Source: a virus
Lineage: Duplodnaviria > Caudoviricetes
Direction: 5' to 3' (one strand)
IMG/VR virus record: IMGVR_UViG_3300034161_000018
Coordinates: 96,001-160,000 of that record
Length of the DNA: 64,000 nt
Part shown: piece after piece, positions 1,458 to 61,790 of the stretch
Layout: every line of letters begins with the position of its first letter
How positions within the stretch are numbered: position 1 is the first letter of the stretch
Translations under genes and position numbers: made by a program
The notes under the pieces: model-generated
Told to the model about the DNA's origin: nothing
Databases searched by the model: none
The model's input: only the letters and a program-made list of their open reading frames with translations

Positions 1458-3098
1458 TTAAGCCTCGGTGAAGGACACGGCGCCGGTCGGTTGCACGTTG
1501 GCTCCGAGGTGGGCACGCTTGGCCGGGATTTCAGGGTCGATAATCAAATCGAGTTTAATGTCGTTGTTGGCAATGCTCGCCGGTTTGTTGTTGCGTTCGT
1601 CGCAGATCGTAACCCACTCGTAAACGCCACGGCCCGATTTGATTGGGCGCATGAAATCGTCGCAAATGTTTTTCAATTTGAGACGTTCAAAACCGTCGTT
1701 CGGGTTGAACACCGATGGAACGGTTGCCGCTTCGATACTGGTTTTGATGAAGTTCACCAAACGGCGGACGTTCAAGTTGCTGAAACCGGAATCGAAAGTT
1801 TGCATCGTGCTTTGGCCCATGATTACAAAACCACGGCCCGGAATGTTTCGGATGATGTTTACTTGCGCAGCATCCAGAGCATCACGCGCACCTTGGTTGT
1901 AACGTTGGCGCAGCGAACGCACGTTTACTTGACCGCGATTCAAACCGGCTGGCGCGAACCAAACAGCGCGATTGGTATCGGTGTAGGCACAGGCCGCACC
2001 GACGAACGCACTTGGCGGAATGAAAATGTTTTTGTTGGAATCGGTATCCAGCACTTCCACGAACGGCGCGTAAATTGCGGAATAACTGGAGTTCAGGTTC
2101 AGCGTGTTGCGACGATAATTAACCGCCCGCGAAACTTGAGCCATGTCATCCGGCAAGTCCAGAAGTGCAACACAGTCCCCACGCATTTTCGCGATGGAAT
2201 CCATTTTCTTCTGGTAAGCGGTTGTGGTGTAACCGGAGTTGATAAGCAGGTTGACGAGGATTTGTTCTTTGTCCTCGTACAAGTCCCACGCGTTAATCAG
2301 ATCAACTTGTTTCGGACGATCACCGTCCGCACCGCCGTCCAATTGTTCAAACGCCGCTTTACCGACGCGCACTGGTTTGCAGAGCGAGTTGTTTTTCACG
2401 CGAATGTACGCGGAACGCAGGTTGATTACGTCTTCGACAAACAGTTGTTGATTGTTGCCGTCGATTTCATTTTTCCGCGAACACAGGAACGATTCGACCG
2501 GAGTGTTTCCGGTGCCAGTGTAGTCAATGAAAACATCGACCACGAATTGGAACGGATCGGAATGTTCGCCGACTTCGGTGCCAGCCGTATTCGATGGACG
2601 AACCTGAATCGAAAGACGGTTGTTCCATTTGCCGGGGTTGGCTGCGCAGAAATACAACATTGCGTTTTCTACGCCGATGGTGCCATTCACAAACCCGAGA
2701 GTTTTGAGCGGATCGCCCAAGACGCCCAAAGGCTGATTGGTGCCATCGTCGAAATTCACCAGTTTGATAACTGGATATTCGGCGTTCATATCGTCAACCG
2801 AAAGATACGCGCCAGCGGTGCGGGCGGTGGCCGGGTCAACAACACGAGTGTAGAAAAGTCGTTTGGATTGTGCGAGGAAGATTTCGGCGGAATACAAACC
2901 GAAACCGTATTTCTTCGCGTTTTTGATACCGAATTTTTCGCGAACATCAGCGCGGTCGGTAACGAGGGTCGGAACACCAACCGGCCCCATTGGAGCTTCA
3001 CCGACGATTACGCCGATGGATGTTGCAGCCGCCGTTGCGCGGATCGACAAATCCTGCTCGGCGCTGTAAGTACCAGCACTGGTATTTGGGAAAGCCAT
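1458..3098 (-). CDS. Tail sheath protein, 546 aa
   Basis: N-terminal SAGTYSAEQDLS...IVGEAPMGPVGVPTLVT. C-terminal sheath motifs WFAPAGLNRG, LNVRRLVNFI, WVTICDERNN. Confidence 0.95.
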   Translation of the reverse strand: MAFPNTSAGTYSAEQDLSIRATAAATSIGVIVGEAPMGPVGVPTLVTDRADVREKFGIKNAKKYGFGLYSAEIFLAQSKRLFYTRVVDPATARTAGAYLSVDDMNAEYPVIKLVNFDDGTNQPLGVLGDPLKTLGFVNGTIGVENAMLYFCAANPGKWNNRLSIQVRPSNTAGTEVGEHSDPFQFVVDVFIDYTGTGNTPVESFLCSRKNEIDGNNQQLFVEDVINLRSAYIRVKNNSLCKPVRVGKAAFEQLDGGADGDRPKQVDLINAWDLYEDKEQILVNLLINSGYTTTAYQKKMDSIAKMRGDCVALLDLPDDMAQVSRAVNYRRNTLNLNSSYSAIYAPFVEVLDTDSNKNIFIPPSAFVGAACAYTDTNRAVWFAPAGLNRGQVNVRSLRQRYNQGARDALDAAQVNIIRNIPGRGFVIMGQSTMQTFDSGFSNLNVRRLVNFIKTSIEAATVPSVFNPNDGFERLKLKNICDDFMRPIKSGRGVYEWVTICDERNNKPASIANNDIKLDLIIDPEIPAKRAHLGANVQPTGAVSFTEA

Positions 3099-3204
3099 GA
3101 AAACACCCTTTATATGGTTGGTATGGCGGGGACATATAGAAGGCTTTAACCCTCCACAGTCTTAAATTAAACCATTCCAACCAAAAAGATTGTTTTCGGA
3201 AACC

Positions 3205-3231
3205 AAAAAAGAAAAGGGCCAATTAAGGCCC
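3205..3231 (-). terminator. Rho-independent terminator
   Basis: Minus strand: GGGCC-TTAATT-GGCCC followed by TTTTCTTTTTT, just after the stop at 3248. Confidence 0.8.
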
Positions 3232-3247
3232 GATTCTTGTGTTACGT

Positions 3248-4297
3248 TTATGTATTTACAACGGTTTCGCCGGGAGTGGTAAGAGTGATTGAACCACTTC
3301 CTTCAAGTTTCATTCCAGTCGCAACGGTTTTCGATTTCGCTTTACTCTTTTTCGGTAACTCGATTTCCATATCTTGTGCAGAGATAAAAACTGGAGCCGG
3401 TGCTTGTGACCCGCATTCACCGGAACTATAAACAGAACCGACGCAAACATCCGGACGGATATTCGAGAGGAACAGTTTTTTCGCAATGTCGTCGTGAATA
3501 CAAAGAGTGCGACGACCGGCACCGGATGCCTCAAGTGCTTCAAATTTGTAAAGCATGGTGTAGATTTGTTCGGCGCTTAACGAAATGAATTCACGCCCAA
3601 AACGAATCGGGTGTCCCGCTGGACTAACGCGGTAATGTTCCCGGCCCGGAACCAAAAGTTCGGAAACGACTTTGCCCAAATCCATTTGGATTGGTGGAGC
3701 GATTCGGAATTCCGGATCAGCATCTTTGTAATCCGCTTCGTCACCATAACCGAGATACTCCGAAGCGGGCATTGCACTGCCTGCCAAAAGGCCAACCATG
3801 TATTTCGGTTCGTCACCGTCAATGTGCCATTTGTATTTGCAGTTTTGCCGGTTCTTCCAACGCTCAAACATGGCGCCAAAGAACGCAGCTTCAATTGAGC
3901 GGTTTGCAAACAGAATCTGCAAATCCTTATAATCGCCATCGGCTGTGGTGCCGAGGTTTGCGGTTTCGAGAACTTCAAACAAATCAACAAAACTTGTAAT
4001 AAACGAATTCCCGACGTATTGCAATTCCGGCAGCATCACAATGTAACCGGAAAAACCGTGACCGCGCAGTGAGCTTGGTTTTGAATCGACACCGACGCAG
4101 CGGACGGTGTTTGTATTTTTCGCTTTCAGAATGTTTGCCACGTATGCAGACGCGCTCGCTTCGGTTGTACCGACTACGACGACGTTTGTGCATGATGCGA
4201 TTTTTGCGTTTTCAGGTCGGGTGAATCCGAGCAATAACGATTTAACCGTTACGTCGAAATTGAATGCCGAATTGAAATACTGGTGATTGATACTCAT
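3248..4297 (-). CDS. Hypothetical protein, 349 aa
   Basis: Long ORF with an SD (GAAGG) and flanking terminators. No confident motif. Confidence 0.8.
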   Translation of the reverse strand: MSINHQYFNSAFNFDVTVKSLLLGFTRPENAKIASCTNVVVVGTTEASASAYVANILKAKNTNTVRCVGVDSKPSSLRGHGFSGYIVMLPELQYVGNSFITSFVDLFEVLETANLGTTADGDYKDLQILFANRSIEAAFFGAMFERWKNRQNCKYKWHIDGDEPKYMVGLLAGSAMPASEYLGYGDEADYKDADPEFRIAPPIQMDLGKVVSELLVPGREHYRVSPAGHPIRFGREFISLSAEQIYTMLYKFEALEASGAGRRTLCIHDDIAKKLFLSNIRPDVCVGSVYSSGECGSQAPAPVFISAQDMEIELPKKSKAKSKTVATGMKLEGSGSITLTTPGETVVNT

Positions 4298-11046: not shown

Positions 11047-11520
11047 TCACTCTGGTTTTGGGAATGGCCGAGGTTCTGGAATCGAATAGCCGCACCACGT
11101 AATTTCTGGCTCTGGCATTCTAGCCAGTTCGGAACTACGGATAAGAAGGCGAGTCCCTGATGTTTGTTTACAGTTTTCGTCCACAAACTTCATCCAGCTT
11201 TTGGCTAGTGTATGGGCGATTTCCGGCGTGGAATGCGGGCCGACGAATTCCCAAACGTCTTGGCACATAAGCGGAAAGGCTGGTTCCCATTGTTCGCGGG
11301 TTTCTTCCCGAATAGGAAACAGGCGCACGATCAGGCCATGTTGAAGCGCATGATAGATTGTCCAATAATTCTCTTTGTCCGTTTCGGCAGTAATGCCTTT
11401 TACGTTTTCGTAAAAGTAGTCCATCGACGGAATCAGCAACAGGGTGCCGTAATGTTCTTCCGCAACTTCGCACTTTGCGATCACGCCGTATTGCGGAATC
11501 GGCGGCGTGTAATCAGGCAT
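11047..11520 (-). CDS. Hypothetical protein, 157 aa
   Basis: Operon-coupled ORF. Confidence 0.75.
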   Translation of the reverse strand: MPDYTPPIPQYGVIAKCEVAEEHYGTLLLIPSMDYFYENVKGITAETDKENYWTIYHALQHGLIVRLFPIREETREQWEPAFPLMCQDVWEFVGPHSTPEIAHTLAKSWMKFVDENCKQTSGTRLLIRSSELARMPEPEITWCGYSIPEPRPFPKPE

Positions 11521-49112: not shown

Positions 49113-50411
49113 TTAGTTGCCGCGAATATGTTTTAGAGTCTTCTGCAACAACTTGTCGATCTTGCCGGGGAGCTTGTGACCAGTCAGACTGTGCGACAAA
49201 GCTTCGGCGAAGAATTCTTCGACTTTGGTTGCAGCGTATGCAGTAATGGGTTGATCGGATTCGGAAAGGCTGGCGCTGGTCGGCCAGATTTCGCCGAGCA
49301 CTTGCGAATTGTGCGTGAGCAGCAAGTTTACATCTTGCGGACTCAGCTTGTGGTGACGTTTCAGGTACACCAGAATTTCGCGGAAGATCGCCTTGTCTTC
49401 GTCGTCCAAATCTTTGTTGAACTCACGGATGCCGACTTGCGATTCAACCAAACGTTTCAGCATGCTTTCAAGTTGCGATTTCTTCGCCTTGTTAACATGC
49501 GTGTGTTCGTTGTACGAAACCAACCAGCGCGCCCGGAATTCGTCGCTCATTTTCCGGAACCAGAGTGCGTGCGAAACTTCGTGCAGCACAATGTACAGAT
49601 TGTATTTCGGGTCTTCCATCACTTGTGGGTGGAAGGTGATTTTGTCTTGTACGTCGTCGCCTTTCCGTTTGATCGAATAGGTGCCAGCGTATTTGCCTTT
49701 CTTGTTACGGACTTCCAAACGCTTGACCGGCAACACGCCGTCGAGTTTGTTTTCCTTGAGGACTTCCAGCGCTTTCGCCAGTGCCCACTTGAACGCTTTC
49801 TTTTCCGCTTTGTTCATTTTGCGGTAATAGAAAAGCTTGCCGAACTCGCTTTCGGTTTCGGAGCGCTGCGGCTCAACGTGAACACCGAAGGCCGTGCCGA
49901 TTTCCGGATCAGTACCGAGGCACGCAATCAGCGTTTTTTCGTCGTACTCGAAAACTTCTGGTTCTTCGCTATTCAGCGTTTCTTCCAGATAGCAGGCGTT
50001 GCGTTCCGGGTTGTGCGCAAAGCCGAGTTTGTATCGGGCGCCGACGCGAACAATAATGTAATTGTCTTTGCCGACGACGATTGGCAGCGTCACCTTTTCT
50101 TTCGACTGCGGAACGTATTCGTCTTTCAGGCGACCGGAAACGTCGATAACGGTATCGCCACCGCTGGATTTCTTTTTCTTCTTTTTGCTTGGCGGCGGCT
50201 CGACTTCTTTCTTCTTCGACTTCTTGCCGACTGCTTTGGCGAGAGCTTTCTGCAAACCCGGATCGTCTTCTGGTTCCGGCTTCGGTTTCTTTTTCTTCTT
50301 CGGCTTGTCGTCAGCCTTCACCACGTCTTTCGACTTTTTGGTTTTCTTCGGCTTGTCGTCATCCCACGGCAAATCAACGTCTTCCGTCTTTTTCGACTTC
50401 TTAGTTTTCAT
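49113..50411 (-). CDS. Zincin metallopeptidase-like protein with Lys-rich N-terminus (start MKTKKS at 50411)
   Basis: VLHEVSHALW (HExxH) and downstream AYAATKVEEFFAEAL. Confidence 0.75.
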   Translation of the reverse strand: MKTKKSKKTEDVDLPWDDDKPKKTKKSKDVVKADDKPKKKKKPKPEPEDDPGLQKALAKAVGKKSKKKEVEPPPSKKKKKKSSGGDTVIDVSGRLKDEYVPQSKEKVTLPIVVGKDNYIIVRVGARYKLGFAHNPERNACYLEETLNSEEPEVFEYDEKTLIACLGTDPEIGTAFGVHVEPQRSETESEFGKLFYYRKMNKAEKKAFKWALAKALEVLKENKLDGVLPVKRLEVRNKKGKYAGTYSIKRKGDDVQDKITFHPQVMEDPKYNLYIVLHEVSHALWFRKMSDEFRARWLVSYNEHTHVNKAKKSQLESMLKRLVESQVGIREFNKDLDDEDKAIFREILVYLKRHHKLSPQDVNLLLTHNSQVLGEIWPTSASLSESDQPITAYAATKVEEFFAEALSHSLTGHKLPGKIDKLLQKTLKHIRGN

Positions 50412-50655
50412 TTCTGTTTTCCGCATCAACAGCATAACGCTGAACAAAGTATTGGATTGCCAATTCCTTTTCGCCGTGTGGTGCCAACGGCCCGTGCTCT
50501 TTGCAGTACGGGCAGCGAACCGCCGAACTTACTTGGCCGGGGTTCATGTTGGGAACCGGAAACACGTCGAAAAGATTTGGATGGAAAGTCTTGTGACAGT
50601 GAATGCACAGACACTTGATTCGGGCAGGCCCATTCGGGACTTGAGGCAACGGCAT
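50401..50655 (-). CDS. Zinc-ribbon protein, 84 aa
   Basis: CIHC...CPYC. Confidence 0.7.
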   Translation of the reverse strand: MPLPQVPNGPARIKCLCIHCHKTFHPNLFDVFPVPNMNPGQVSSAVRCPYCKEHGPLAPHGEKELAIQYFVQRYAVDAENRNEN

Positions 50656-50667
50656 TACAAAATCCTG

Positions 50668-51075
50668 TTACGCGCTGGTGCGGTGCGTTTGGTCAATGAA
50701 GCTAACGCTGGTCAAATCCAATTCGCGATGCACAACCATAATCGGTTTGCAGCCGTCATGGAAACGGAACTTGCGATCATTCGCCGGTTTCATTTTTTCG
50801 TACCACTCGGAAAGTGGCTTCGACCATTTGTTGCCGTTCTCGCCAACGTATTCAACCATCGGCGGATGTTTTGGATTTGTCGATTCCAGATTGTTGTAAC
50901 CGACGACCAGATACAGGTTGCCCTTGTAGTGTTCGTAAACAGTTGCAACCACTGGCAACGGAATCGGTGTCGCTTTGAAATCTGCCGATTCGTGAAATGC
51001 GGAACCAACGTGCGTTTCGATTGCGTCACGATTGAAGTTTTCCAAAATCGCGGCACTCAGTTTTGCGTCAATCAT
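50668..51075 (-). CDS. DUF1653-like protein
   Basis: VYEHYKGNLYLVVG...MVEY...W.KPLSEW..KM. Confidence 0.75.
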   Translation of the reverse strand: MIDAKLSAAILENFNRDAIETHVGSAFHESADFKATPIPLPVVATVYEHYKGNLYLVVGYNNLESTNPKHPPMVEYVGENGNKWSKPLSEWYEKMKPANDRKFRFHDGCKPIMVVHRELDLTSVSFIDQTHRTSA

Positions 51076-51334
51076 CTTCGACCACCACTTCCTTTATATT
51101 GTGTTGGAGTTGGACAAGACGACGCAGCTTCGCAATTTCCGCTGCCATTGTCCGGATTGTCAGAACGGCATTACCCGATCCCGCCACTGGCAGAATCTTT
51201 TTGATTTCGTCGAGTTCTTCAAACATCGGTTGCATGTGTTCGATGTAATCAATCGAACTGCGGATACGTGCGACGGAACTGGCGCTGCCACTGATTTGAA
51301 CCAGCGACGTTCCCACTTGGAATTGTACTTGCAT
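51068..51334 (-). CDS. Hypothetical protein, 88 aa
   Basis: Preceded by the AAACTGTAAA motif and AAGGA. Confidence 0.7.
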   Translation of the reverse strand: MQVQFQVGTSLVQISGSASSVARIRSSIDYIEHMQPMFEELDEIKKILPVAGSGNAVLTIRTMAAEIAKLRRLVQLQHNIKEVVVEDD

Positions 51335-51365: not shown

Positions 51366-52469
51366 TTACAGTTTATTCTTCAACGCGGCCAACGTATTGT
51401 TTGCGATGGCATCGTAAATCGTCACGCGTTCATGGCCGCGCTTTCCGCAAACAACATCGGTTCCGTCGATCTTGGAATGTTGCGCGTGACCGCAATGCGG
51501 ACAGAAAGCCATGTTGGTAAACAGATTCACCGGGTTGACCATTCGTTTGTGTTCGACCGCACCCAGCAACATCAGACGCTGAACTTCGTTCATCAAAATG
51601 TCGAGGTTCAAATAATTCCAACTGACTTGCATTCCGGGCGTGACCGGCAAACAGTAACCGAGAGTCGAATAGCTTTCGACAATCTCTTTCGCAAACTCCG
51701 GCGCAAACTTGTAGGCGCGTGTTTCCATTTCGTAAGAACGCGCATCGCGATCCCGCGCAGCCTGACGGAAATCGTGATCCATTGGTTCGGTTGCGTCTCG
51801 CATCCGTTTGACTGCGCTGCCCGCCGATTTCGATTTCAGTTCAACAAAATACGCATAGTCTTCTAGGCCGCGTGGCTTCAACGCTTTCTGTTCCGTCGAA
51901 CAAAACATGATTGGCGTTTCGCGAACTGGCGTCATCACCATAATCGCCGCACCACTAACGGACGGGCGAATGTCGGATTCCACAATTGCTTTCGCGTGCC
52001 AGTTTCGGTAAACGTGATTGCTCCGCACAAACTCCACAAACAATGCGTTTTTGGTTTTGCCGTCTTTCGACAACTCGCCAAGGTGCGGCAGTTCCATGCG
52101 TTGGTTGTCGCTGCGAATAATCGACAGTGCAAACGATCCGGAAGTGCGCTCGCGTTCCAAATAAACCGCCGCTGTGTAGCAGTCCAAGTGATTGCGAATC
52201 GGGGCGAAAATGCTTTTCACTTTCAGCGATGCGCCTTTCACCAGTTCCGGATATTTGGAAAGGGAATCAACGCCCATTGCTTCGTCTTCGTGGCTGAGCG
52301 CACGAATGATTGTTGGATAATCGACTTCCTTACCGGCGAGAATCAGGTAACGCACTTGTGCAAACATTCGCTGAAAGATTTGCTGATACGCTGCACAAAC
52401 TTTTTCAAAACGAGCGGACTGCTCGGTAGTCGGGAAAATGGAAATTGCATTGTACGTGTGAACTTTCAT
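51366..52469 (-). CDS. TnpB-fold protein with degenerate RuvC active site, 367 aa
   Basis: N-terminal IFPTTEQ (HTH_OrfB-like), LPHLG, WHAKAIVE, SWN, C-terminal FCPHCGH...VVCGKRGH...YDAIANN. Acidic residues are missing at the expected RuvC I/II/III positions. SD GAGGTG. Confidence 0.75.
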   Translation of the reverse strand: MKVHTYNAISIFPTTEQSARFEKVCAAYQQIFQRMFAQVRYLILAGKEVDYPTIIRALSHEDEAMGVDSLSKYPELVKGASLKVKSIFAPIRNHLDCYTAAVYLERERTSGSFALSIIRSDNQRMELPHLGELSKDGKTKNALFVEFVRSNHVYRNWHAKAIVESDIRPSVSGAAIMVMTPVRETPIMFCSTEQKALKPRGLEDYAYFVELKSKSAGSAVKRMRDATEPMDHDFRQAARDRDARSYEMETRAYKFAPEFAKEIVESYSTLGYCLPVTPGMQVSWNYLNLDILMNEVQRLMLLGAVEHKRMVNPVNLFTNMAFCPHCGHAQHSKIDGTDVVCGKRGHERVTIYDAIANNTLAALKNKL

Positions 52470-52489
52470 GTTGTTTCACCTCATAATAT

Positions 52490-52990
52490 GGCTCGGCGGC
52501 GCGGGCGTGCGCTTGCCGGTCGGCGGGTGGCTCGCGGTGTAATAGCTTGCCAGTCCTCGCTCCGCTTCGGACTGTGGTTAGACTTTGAGCGTTAGCGAAA
52601 GGTCTAAGCATTGTAAGCGATTAGAAACAGTTAAGACGTTAAAGGGCCATTGCTTCTAATGTCTGGCCTGTTTTCCAAAAAGGAAAATTCAGGCAGAGGT
52701 ATCCCTTTGTTTTCAACGGTTCATGCACAACCAGCTTCCGCTGTCTGCGTTTTGAACCAGAGCGGGGCCACGTTTCTTTGCTTTCTTGGGTTTTGCTAGC
52801 TGCGCTAGCCAATAACCGTCGAGTGGCTACGCCACGTCTCCGGTTACGTTTTCCTTCGGAAAAGCAATTGTGCTTGCACGCTTCAATCAATCACAAACAC
52901 CAAATGGAATTCAACTGGACAACGCATTGCATGCAGCCTTTCTCGCTTCGCTCAATCATCGCCCCACCAACCTCCGGTACGCACCCCCAG
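52490..52990. ncRNA. Candidate structured non-coding RNA region
   Basis: Consecutive stem-loops at 52551-52574, 52578-52607, 52788-52818, 52815-52844, 52849-52863 and 52862-52875, with no credible ORF. Confidence 0.45.
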
Positions 52991-53146
52991 TTTACACTTT
53001 TAAAAAAGGGGTCGTTTTCCGGAACGTTTACGGAATCATTCCCGAATCAATATTTACGACTTTGCGTATTAACGTGTGTGGGAGCCTGCCAGAGCTATGT
53101 AGGTGCTGACTTTTTGATTAAGCTATTTTTATTCGGGAAAGAAACG

Positions 53147-53185
53147 AAAAAAGCCCGAATCCGCGTGAACGGAAACGAGCTTTTT
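53147..53185. terminator. Terminator after 53192-53758 (T tracts on both strands)
   Basis: Minus strand AAGCTCG..TCCG-TTCACG-CGGA..CGGGCTT-TTTT; the plus strand also ends in TTTTTGTTTT. Confidence 0.75.
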
Positions 53186-53191
53186 GTTTTC

Positions 53192-61085: not shown

Positions 61086-61790
61086 ATGAAGATTCAAATC
61101 AAACTGGGCGCGACCACTGCGCTTTCTGGTTCCGTCTACAGCGAACCAGATATGGAAGCGGTCGAACAACTTCTGCCTTCCGATGAAGAACTGGCCGAAC
61201 GCGAAACCGAGAAAGCGGAAAAGGAACGCCGCGAACAGGCCGAGGAAGCCAAGAAGAAAGCGACCGAACAGAAAGACAAGAAAGAAGACAAAGGGCCGGA
61301 AGATAAAGTCGGCGACACAAGCAGCGACGACGAAGAAGATTCGGAAGACGACGAAGATTCCGAAGACGGCGACGAAGAAGATTCGGAAGAAGGTGATGAA
61401 GAAGATGGAGACGAAGAAGAATCCGATGATTCGGATGACTCTGATTCAGACGAAGATGATGAAGCCGAAGAAGACGATGAAGCAACGGCTGCATCGTTTG
61501 AAGACGCAAACATTCTCGGCACTGATGCGCTGGAATCGGAAAATCTGAAACAGGAAGCCGAAGAAAAGGCTACCAAGAAACCGGAAGACATGACGCCGGA
61601 TGAATTGGAAGAATATTTGGCCGAACAGAAAGCCAAAGAGGAAGAAGAAGCCGCGCAGAAAGTCGAAAACGAAAACCCGGATGGTGAAGGCGCCGCAATC
61701 GAAAAACCAGCAGCGCCACCGCCTAGCGCGGCTGTGGCTTCGGCACTCGCAGCACTGGACGATAACCTGCGGCCCACCAGCTTCCTGTAA
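61086..61790 (+). CDS. Highly acidic low-complexity protein, 234 aa
   Basis: Long D/E tract (SSDDEEDSEDDEDSEDGDEEDSEE...); SD GGAG. Confidence 0.8.
   Translation: MKIQIKLGATTALSGSVYSEPDMEAVEQLLPSDEELAERETEKAEKERREQAEEAKKKATEQKDKKEDKGPEDKVGDTSSDDEEDSEDDEDSEDGDEEDSEEGDEEDGDEEESDDSDDSDSDEDDEAEEDDEATAASFEDANILGTDALESENLKQEAEEKATKKPEDMTPDELEEYLAEQKAKEEEEAAQKVENENPDGEGAAIEKPAAPPPSAAVASALAALDDNLRPTSFL

Follow-up and report, generated by a model that had tools for sequence, protein, structure and literature searches.

To our knowledge, the natural RNA-guided transcription factors described in bacteria are all nuclease-dead derivatives of TnpB or Cas12f, i.e., TldR and the dCas12f that acts with sigma-E, and the cases that have been described lie on bacterial chromosomes and in temperate prophages and are recognizable by sequence. 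Here, we describe a candidate for the same kind of protein in a jumbo phage. The window analyzed in this study is a stretch of 64,000 nucleotides (positions 96,001 to 160,000 of the IMG/VR virus record IMGVR_UViG_3300034161_000018; Duplodnaviria, Caudoviricetes), and the gene in question, at 51366..52469 on the minus strand, encodes a TnpB-fold protein of 367 aa, hereafter dTnpB. A structured non-coding RNA of about 500 nt is located upstream of it, at 52483..52989 on the same strand. We put the chances at slightly better than even that dTnpB is a domesticated TnpB homolog that is unable to cut by the canonical RuvC mechanism and that has the upstream RNA as its scaffold, i.e., that it is a TldR-like, non-cleaving binder. 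The main addition over the open reading frame (ORF) itself is this conserved RNA, which, as a feature read from sequence, would be the strongest new argument that dTnpB is guided by RNA and from which we infer a function for the pair.

TldRs have been defined as TnpB-like proteins in which at least two of the catalytic DED residues (the Asp, Glu, and Asp of RuvC-I, RuvC-II, and RuvC-III, respectively) are mutated, and the same study warned that the apparent loss of these residues in alignments is often spurious (Wiegand et al., 10.1101/2023.11.30.569447). The guides of TldRs were read there from the 3' boundary of a scaffold located in the gene and its 500-bp flanks. Like the TldRs (Wiegand et al., 10.1101/2023.11.30.569447; Xiao et al., PMC13622181), dTnpB combines the TnpB fold with at least two DED mutations, has no link to a transposase, is carried by a phage next to a structured RNA, and is presumed to bind without cutting. 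The differences are nevertheless considerable. TldRs are recognizable TnpB sequences that stand among active relatives, whereas the dTnpB family has no profile match; the RNA of the present locus precedes the gene, measures about 500 nt, and closes on itself, and the search for a guide in it was negative; many TldRs have lost the zinc finger and the C-terminal part of RuvC, both of which are kept in dTnpB; and the fliC-associated TldRs reside in temperate prophages, whereas dTnpB belongs to the core genes of a phage that has a genome of 275 kb and is part of a jumbo-myovirus group.

The dCas12f that acts with sigma-E (PMC13472631; PDB accession numbers 9n9c and 9n9m) is likewise a nuclease-dead protein with a miniature Cas12/TnpB fold, with which the dTnpB model aligns at a Z-score of 8.5. 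Its guide RNA is used for the activation of transcription, and dTnpB would be a similar RNA-guided binder, although its locus carries no CRISPR-derived guide. No sigma gene was found next to dTnpB at the locus; the search did not extend to sigma factors elsewhere in the genome or to CRISPR arrays. ISDra2 TnpB with its omega-RNA (PDB accession numbers 8h1j, 8exa, and 8bf8) is the best structural match of dTnpB; the two proteins, of 408 and 367 aa, respectively, share the domain order, in which the zinc ribbon is followed by the RuvC-III acid. Unlike ISDra2 TnpB, dTnpB has a nuclease site that is not intact, no Y1 TnpA, and no RNA over the 3' end of its ORF, and the sequence identity between the two is about 12%. 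By analogy with these systems, dTnpB most likely has a TldR- or dCas12f-like working mode, yet by sequence it is not a member of any described TnpB or TldR clade.

The dTnpB gene is an intact ORF that starts with ATG and contains no frameshifts, and the Shine-Dalgarno (SD) sequence GAGG at 52479..52482 (minus strand) lies nine bases 5' of the start codon, as an earlier note made on this DNA from the letters alone had described. The same note had read the domain order of an IS200/IS605 TnpB into the protein, and sequence searches are blind to this relationship. Against Pfam, dTnpB gave nothing at E ≤ 10 for OrfB_IS605, Cas12f1-like_TNB, or HTH_OrfB_IS605; against PHROGs, it gave noise only; the family profile had no match among the PDB sequences; and the PF07282 profile, which was positive in 8 of 14 control genomes, had no match in the whole genome. 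The predicted structure, on the other hand, bears the domain order out. The AlphaFold2 (AF2) model of dTnpB, for which 12 orthologs formed the input alignment, has a predicted local distance difference test (pLDDT) score of 92.2 and a predicted template modeling (TM) score (pTM) of 0.86. All 39 Foldseek matches of this model in the PDB at E ≤ 0.001 are TnpB, Cas12, or Fanzor chains, the best of which is ISDra2 TnpB (8h1j; E = 7e-10). The match to ISDra2 TnpB extends over the full length, with a Z-score of 13.8 and 320 aligned residues in VIA-align (residues 1-367 of the model and 1-376 of the chain). In the ESM Atlas, the features of dTnpB lead to the TnpB/Cas12f1-like TNB families, and its structure has a TM score of 0.52-0.57 to IS605 OrfB/TnpB clusters. 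Judged from these models, dTnpB is a TnpB/Cas12-superfamily protein by architecture over its whole length, with the order WED, REC, RuvC, and zinc ribbon, and its lineage is so diverged that its family membership is recognized by structure alone.

The catalytic residues were mapped with a reference profile of seven TnpB sequences, i.e., E. coli InsQ and six diverse phage TnpBs; the latter were added because the search for InsQ homologs gave only near-identical E. coli proteins. The invariant columns of this profile comprise the RuvC-I Asp (G-x-D-x-G), the RuvC-II Glu, CxxC...CxxC, and the RuvC-III D-x-N-x-x-x-N, and the catalytic columns were anchored by the alignment of InsQ with ISDra2 TnpB. 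The hhalign match between the dTnpB family and the profile is weak (E = 0.021), yet it is colinear over 306 columns, pairing residues 8-347 of dTnpB with positions 7-342 of the profile and ending before RuvC-III. The hhalign comparison with InsQ alone was not significant.

In this alignment, the column of the RuvC-I Asp (GIDLG in TnpB) pairs with T180 (codon at 51930..51932, minus strand), which is located in AIMVMT at the end of the model strand formed by residues 174-179. Position 180 is occupied by Thr, Ala, Ser, or Arg in the 12 close orthologs, and a conserved acid is also missing there from the distant pair. The column of the RuvC-II Glu (IEDL in TnpB) pairs with L274 (codon at 51648..51650, minus strand), which is located in CLPV directly after the model strand 269-273; this position is Leu, Ala, Tyr, or Phe across the family, and Glu is found in only 2 of the 14 members. 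The earlier note had placed the loss of the first two acids at these same segments, and both assignments stand, but it went too far in counting all three catalytic acids as lost. The RuvC-III acid is kept as D353 (codon at 51411..51413, minus strand) at the N-terminus of the last model helix (residues 351-366); the 12 close orthologs all have Asp at this position, and the two distant members have Glu. D353 lies seven residues past H346 in D-A-I-A-N-N-T (the TIYDAIAN of the earlier reading), where real TnpBs have D-x-N-A-A-x-N(-I). Because D353 is retained, the number of lost acids is two, not three. With this mapping taken as a guide, dTnpB falls within the operational definition of a TldR, i.e., at least two DED mutations. 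The loss of the RuvC-I Asp and the RuvC-II Glu would abolish canonical RuvC cutting of DNA by dTnpB. The family retains the fold, along with the zinc ribbon and the acid of RuvC-III.

The zinc ribbon (TNB) is located at 51432..51503 (minus strand) and has the form C323-x2-C326 ... C341-x4-H346, all four residues of which are invariant in the 14 sequences. C323, C326, and C341 are paired by hhalign with the first three zinc cysteines of TnpB, and the position of the fourth Cys is occupied by R344. From the sequence pattern, H346 is likely to be the fourth zinc ligand, which would give a CCCH rather than a CCCC pattern.

The retention of D353 and of a conserved acid at position 184 weighs against a non-cleaving protein, since a rebuilt active site becomes conceivable. 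In such a case, dTnpB would still be a nuclease, with a rearranged site composed of D353 and other conserved acids, such as E184, D233, E249, D290, or E295, and would act as an RNA-guided cutter against hosts, rival phages, or plasmids. The acid of RuvC-III is present in 14 of the 14 sequences, position 184 is Glu or Asp in the 12 close orthologs with an acid close by in the two distant ones, and the zinc ribbon is intact, unlike that of many TldRs; moreover, the mapping depends on the weak alignment mentioned above, and the published caution about spurious DED loss applies to it. However, T180 and L274 are located at the ends of RuvC strands 1 and 4 of the model, at the sites where the Asp and the Glu are required, and neither catalytic position has a conserved acid among the 14 sequences. 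The remaining acids have counterparts that are not catalytic. E184 was not taken as a relocated catalytic residue because many TnpBs have a non-catalytic Asp at this place (GIDLGIKD), and D290, E295, and R298 are paired by hhalign with the D.GW.E.R motif of TnpB, of which the D.GW.E acids matching D290 and E295 are non-catalytic. We consider a rearranged nuclease improbable.

The genome that hosts dTnpB is complete, with a length of 274,896 bp, direct terminal repeats, and a GC content of 50.6%, which agrees with the jumbo-phage setting supposed earlier. The genes of the window include those for the tail sheath, the portal, the DNA polymerase, a helicase of 1992 aa, RNR, SbcC, and the clamp loader. 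Among cultured phages, those closest to it are the Pseudomonas jumbo phages HRDY3, PaBG, and Lu11, with portal identities of approximately 52-54%. dTnpB is a single-copy gene in the whole genome. No Y1 TnpA was found in the 274,896-bp genome, in line with the earlier remark that tnpA is absent; a serine-recombinase TnpA was not searched for.

The dTnpB family consists of 14 intact members, i.e., 12 close ones including that of the window (the eleven orthologs of which have identities of 47-90%) and two distant ones (27-29%), and all of the relatives come from metagenomes. In 11 close loci, the gene order is the same: a gene of 182-200 aa, an ORF-free gap of about 730 nt, dTnpB, a gene of 85-94 aa, and a peptidase gene, followed by the clamp loader wherever the contig extends far enough. 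One further close locus ends just upstream of the RNA, and the two distant loci have only partial synteny. The fixed position in the close loci would agree with the earlier remark that recognizable IS ends are missing, although no search aimed at such ends was made. The ratio of nonsynonymous to synonymous divergence (dN/dS) of dTnpB is 0.07-0.36 among the related phages, which indicates purifying rather than relaxed selection. Taken with the 14 intact members, the fixed synteny, the single copy, and the lack of Y1 TnpA, this agrees with the view put forward in the earlier note that the gene is domesticated and not decayed. An insertion of IS200/IS605 or IS607 of which dTnpB is a functionless, decaying remnant would account for the missing Y1 tnpA and for the two catalytic residues that are gone. 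However, intact versions of the ORF are found in 14 lineages, with identities as low as 25% and dN/dS well below 1, its syntenic position is fixed, a strong SD sequence and a promoter motif precede it, and its invariant motifs include the zinc ligands, so that we regard a remnant of this kind as extremely improbable.

Outside the metagenomic relatives, the family was not encountered. tblastn with P0001, P0013, and P0014 against 50,697 GenBank phages gave zero matches, megablast of the locus gave nothing, the protein-profile scan of IMG/VR gave nothing, and dTnpB is missing at the syntenic place in PaBG. The sequencing runs that contain at least a fifth of the words sampled from the RNA region are labelled wetland, freshwater sediment, wastewater, soil, and rhizosphere.

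The RNA occupies most of the ORF-free gap between dTnpB and the gene upstream (52470-53191, approximately 720 nt), which has an equal size in every locus. Its G-rich 5' end pairs with its C-rich 3' end, and many hairpins are located in between; the 3' boundary is uncertain. The RNA is better conserved than the coding sequence (CDS) of dTnpB. Between the window and the relative loci L022, L004, and L006, the nucleotide identity is 0.94, 0.88, and 0.71, respectively, in the RNA versus 0.84, 0.76, and 0.59 in the CDS, the third positions of which have identities of 0.73, 0.60, and 0.41. Among the 19 pairs listed, the identity of the RNA equals or exceeds that of the CDS in 18 and lies above that of the third positions in all 19. 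An ORF of 83 aa inside the RNA (52639-52890) was ruled out as a gene: its identities by codon position (0.687, 0.679, and 0.675) have no periodicity, and, with the same alignment column as the starting point, its frame runs into stops in all of the relatives.

Many helices with compensatory changes, including helices in the 3' half and long-range ones, were obtained with RNAalifold, and the closing helix between the G-rich 5' end and the C-rich 3' end was also found in the folds of single sequences. The core of the RNA, for which we built the covariance model R1, is located at 52795..52959 (minus strand) and comprises 164 positions with six helices, including GCAU/AUGC, ACCGG..GUGGC/GCCAC..CCGGU, and GCUAGC/GCUAGC. 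In this core, 95.7% of the cells are paired and 18 of the 32 pairs have changed on both sides, as counted in an alignment that had been fitted to the model and in which one row out of 13, a match to the minus strand of L005, is spurious. None of 500 shuffles reached 18 compensatory pairs, and the slid controls gave at most 5. R1 finds a single copy in the genome (E = 1.8e-56). The strand was assigned from the mismatches: G-U pairs exceed A-C mismatches by 110 to 27, and the RNA is therefore read on the strand of dTnpB.

No known RNA family accounts for this element. The Rfam search gave no family at the gathering score, noise at E ≤ 10, and no HEARO, and the search for tRNA and tmRNA found none. 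RNA-motif scans of IMG/VR gave nothing, the sole match (L008) being due to chance, and a similar scan of JGI metagenomes returned seven loci, none of which carries dTnpB and all of which are chance matches. No RNA run is listed among those that contain the RNA region. Short contigs of relatives in four runs that are possibly of RNA were examined as evidence of expression and rejected, since they cover the most conserved stretches and thus reflect conservation. The variable segments of the RNA are a loop at around 52625-52665, a region at around 52760-52800, and the C-rich tail. In the distant relative L009, a run of more than 40 T (L009:3768-3810) breaks the variable loop of the RNA; this run may be an assembly artifact or a real homopolymer.

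IscB is the ancestor of Cas9, and IscB and IsrB resemble the present locus in that a large structured RNA (the HEARO RNAs) is located 5' of the gene for a small protein and dominates the particle. The protein fold is unrelated, and the RNA of dTnpB has no match to HEARO in Rfam. By analogy, the arrangement of the dTnpB RNA is closer to that of IscB/IsrB than to that of TnpB.

A promoter-like motif, AAAAGTGTAAAC, is located at the 5' edge of the RNA (52990..53001, minus strand) and is a one-base variant of the phage-wide AAACTGTAAAC. In the 275-kb genome, AANTGTAAAC occurs in 22 copies, 21 of which are AACTGTAAAC, versus approximately 2 expected; the copies mostly follow the local direction of the genes, and an ATG is found within 50 nt in many of the contexts listed. 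The copies of AANTGTAAAC in the window are at 11175, 18986, 52999, and 59961 on the minus strand and at 61790 on the plus strand. The same core is annotated as "putative middle/late promoter" in the record of phage Lu11 (L033:4-19). From its sequence and distribution, the AAACTGTAAAC motif is probably the middle/late promoter of the clade, perhaps read by a phage sigma factor. PaBG has a sigma70-like factor of its own and a possible sigma-E-like factor (PMC7412058).

The conserved part of the RNA begins right after AAAAGTGTAAAC and reaches the SD sequence of dTnpB, and no terminator was seen in the sequence between the RNA and dTnpB. At the other side, a hairpin followed by a T-run, which resembles an intrinsic terminator of the upstream 188-aa gene, is located at 53145..53185 (minus strand) and separates that gene from the RNA/dTnpB unit; it was read by eye and is conserved at the start of the alignment, and the pattern scan did not report it. 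The SD sequence itself lies within a semi-conserved CATAT-TGAGG box. In the close loci, this box, CCATAT(A/T)TGAGG, forms the SD region (52479-52492 in the window). In the distant locus L010, the same box (L010:38-58) lies 48 nt 5' of the start codon, and the role of the SD sequence is taken by another element, GGAG; because the box stands apart from the SD sequence there, it may be an element of the RNA itself.

Whether the RNA is the partner of dTnpB was weighed from their joint occurrence. The RNA adjoins the gene in all 12 loci with enough upstream sequence and partly in a 13th, down to protein identities of 27-29%. In L009, whose dTnpB relative is 29% identical, R1 still finds the RNA upstream (E = 5.5e-6), and in the incomplete locus L010 (27% identical) the C-rich tail and the CATAT-TGAGG box are found upstream. 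In PaBG and Lu11, neither the dTnpB gene nor the RNA was found. Furthermore, the TnpB fold is one that holds RNA scaffolds, and the family keeps this fold intact. These observations argue against an arrangement in which the RNA and dTnpB are independent neighbors, the former being either a phage non-coding RNA that serves a separate purpose or a long structured 5' leader through which the translation of the next gene is controlled, and the latter being a guide-free binder of DNA or RNA. We consider independence of this kind rather unlikely, although a number of observations fit it and count against an RNA-guided dTnpB.

First, the RNA lies on the wrong side of the gene, i.e., 5' of it, and is 2-4 times larger than the known guide RNAs of TnpB and TldR. 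A canonical 3' omega-RNA was ruled out, as there is no extra conservation of synonymous sites at the 3' end of the ORF, and the place of such an RNA is taken by a coding gene 31 nt downstream. Second, the two ends of the RNA pair with each other and leave no obvious free 3' guide. The RNA has no match of at least 14 nt to the rest of the phage genome, its 12-mers occur in the phage genome at chance level (26 versus 18 expected), with no guide or target among them, and inspection by eye revealed at most 5-6 nt of complementarity to the promoter motif.

Third, in the cultured phage HRDY3, the RNA is found next to a protein that is not recognizably TnpB-like. A syntenic gap of 630 nt in its 314-kb genome (PQ015379.1, 166558-167187, i.e., L039:3059-3688) contains a diverged version of the RNA, which R1 detects with E values of 7e-4 to 0.01 and which retains the promoter motif, the GGUGGCGUAGCCACC hairpin, and the C-rich tail. 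Directly 3' of this RNA, the phage encodes a 321-aa orphan protein (XDJ15162.1; CDS at L039:3689-4654), the likeness of which to TnpB is not demonstrable: it is without the zinc ribbon, and its AF2 model has a pLDDT of 35 and no usable fold. On the other hand, a weak colinear profile match to residues 80-177 of dTnpB (E = 0.032) suggests that the 321-aa protein may be a very diverged or truncated homolog of dTnpB.

Fourth, no sign of co-evolution between the RNA and the protein was seen. In two pairs of nearly identical phages, the RNA is 95-99% identical and the dTnpB CDS has diverged, as if alleles of dTnpB had been swapped between phages with near-identical RNA. In windows of 200 nt, the flanks of L006 and L020 are 93-100% identical and most of the dTnpB CDS is 52-81% identical; between L005 and L007, the identity of the CDS falls to 46-77%, and the windows of the flanks are mostly at 87-99%, with some local dips of their own (the dTnpB gene is located at 3001-4104 or 3001-4110 in these four loci). 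An island of CDS divergence is also listed for the window (51366-52469) against L022 and L004, and the 3'-terminal stretch of the ORF, of roughly 100 nt, goes with the conserved flank. Because dS is near 1, the divergence is ascribed to the replacement of dTnpB alleles by recombination and not to rapid change in place. Such a pattern of divergence islands is typical of arms-race genes. With the constant adjacency weighed against the missing guide, the size of the RNA, and the case of HRDY3, the pairing of the RNA with dTnpB is held to be likely but unproven.

If dTnpB is a domesticated, non-cleaving TnpB homolog with the upstream RNA as its scaffold, the following course may be proposed. A phage promoter of the middle/late type would transcribe the RNA together with, or just before, dTnpB. 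The RNA would be an omega-RNA-like cognate scaffold of dTnpB that was shifted to the 5' side of the gene and greatly enlarged, and the particle of the two would bind a nucleic-acid target without cleavage, as TldR and dCas12f do. It would act in middle or late infection by a jumbo myovirus related to PaBG and Lu11. Four parts of this course, i.e., the binding of the RNA by dTnpB, the role of a part of the RNA as guide, the nature of the target, and the effect on regulation, are what we infer from the comparisons above. The silencing of host defense genes and the timing of phage transcription, which the earlier note had put forward as effects, are speculative. A bolder version is possible but doubtful: the pair would represent a new class of phage ribonucleoprotein, in which a minimal, sequence-orphan dead TnpB is combined with a giant, self-closed RNA encoded on its 5' side. 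Such a ribonucleoprotein would be a core component of middle or late infection and would be programmed by RNA to bind DNA or to regulate the transcription of genes of the phage or the host, and its protein alleles would be exchanged as if in an arms race.

Two further elements of the neighborhood are conserved. The gene that takes the usual place of an omega-RNA, 31 nt 3' of dTnpB, is located at 51068..51334 (minus strand), encodes 88 aa, and is conserved in 11 close loci. It is regarded as coding because its identities by codon position are 0.68/0.78/0.47. The 88-aa protein has an acidic tail and no family match, and the distant loci have a gene of 323-334 aa in its place; the protein could be an operon partner of dTnpB. 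Farther downstream, the interval at 50401-50655 (minus strand) between the DUF1653-like gene and the peptidase gene is unusually conserved, with matches of at least 80% to metagenomic contigs of relatives. In some loci, an ORF of 83-89 aa with CxxC...CxxC is called in this interval, and in others it is an ORF-free gap of about 490 nt (L001:6816-7303, L006:4759-5249, and L019:2382-2876). It could be a small zinc-ribbon gene that was missed by the callers or a second conserved element.

The locus suggests that the same exaptation of TnpB that gave rise to TldR and dCas12f may have occurred in a clade of jumbo phages, here with an RNA of unprecedented size and position. dTnpB itself is so far known only from uncultured phages, but because HRDY3 carries the diverged RNA, an entry into wet-lab work is realistic for the RNA. 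If dTnpB and the RNA form a working ribonucleoprotein, it would be a very small (367 aa), RNA-rich architecture to be set beside IscB/IsrB and a test case for the relocation and growth of a guide RNA after domestication, and it may point to RNA-programmed control of genes, or takeover of the host, in large phages.

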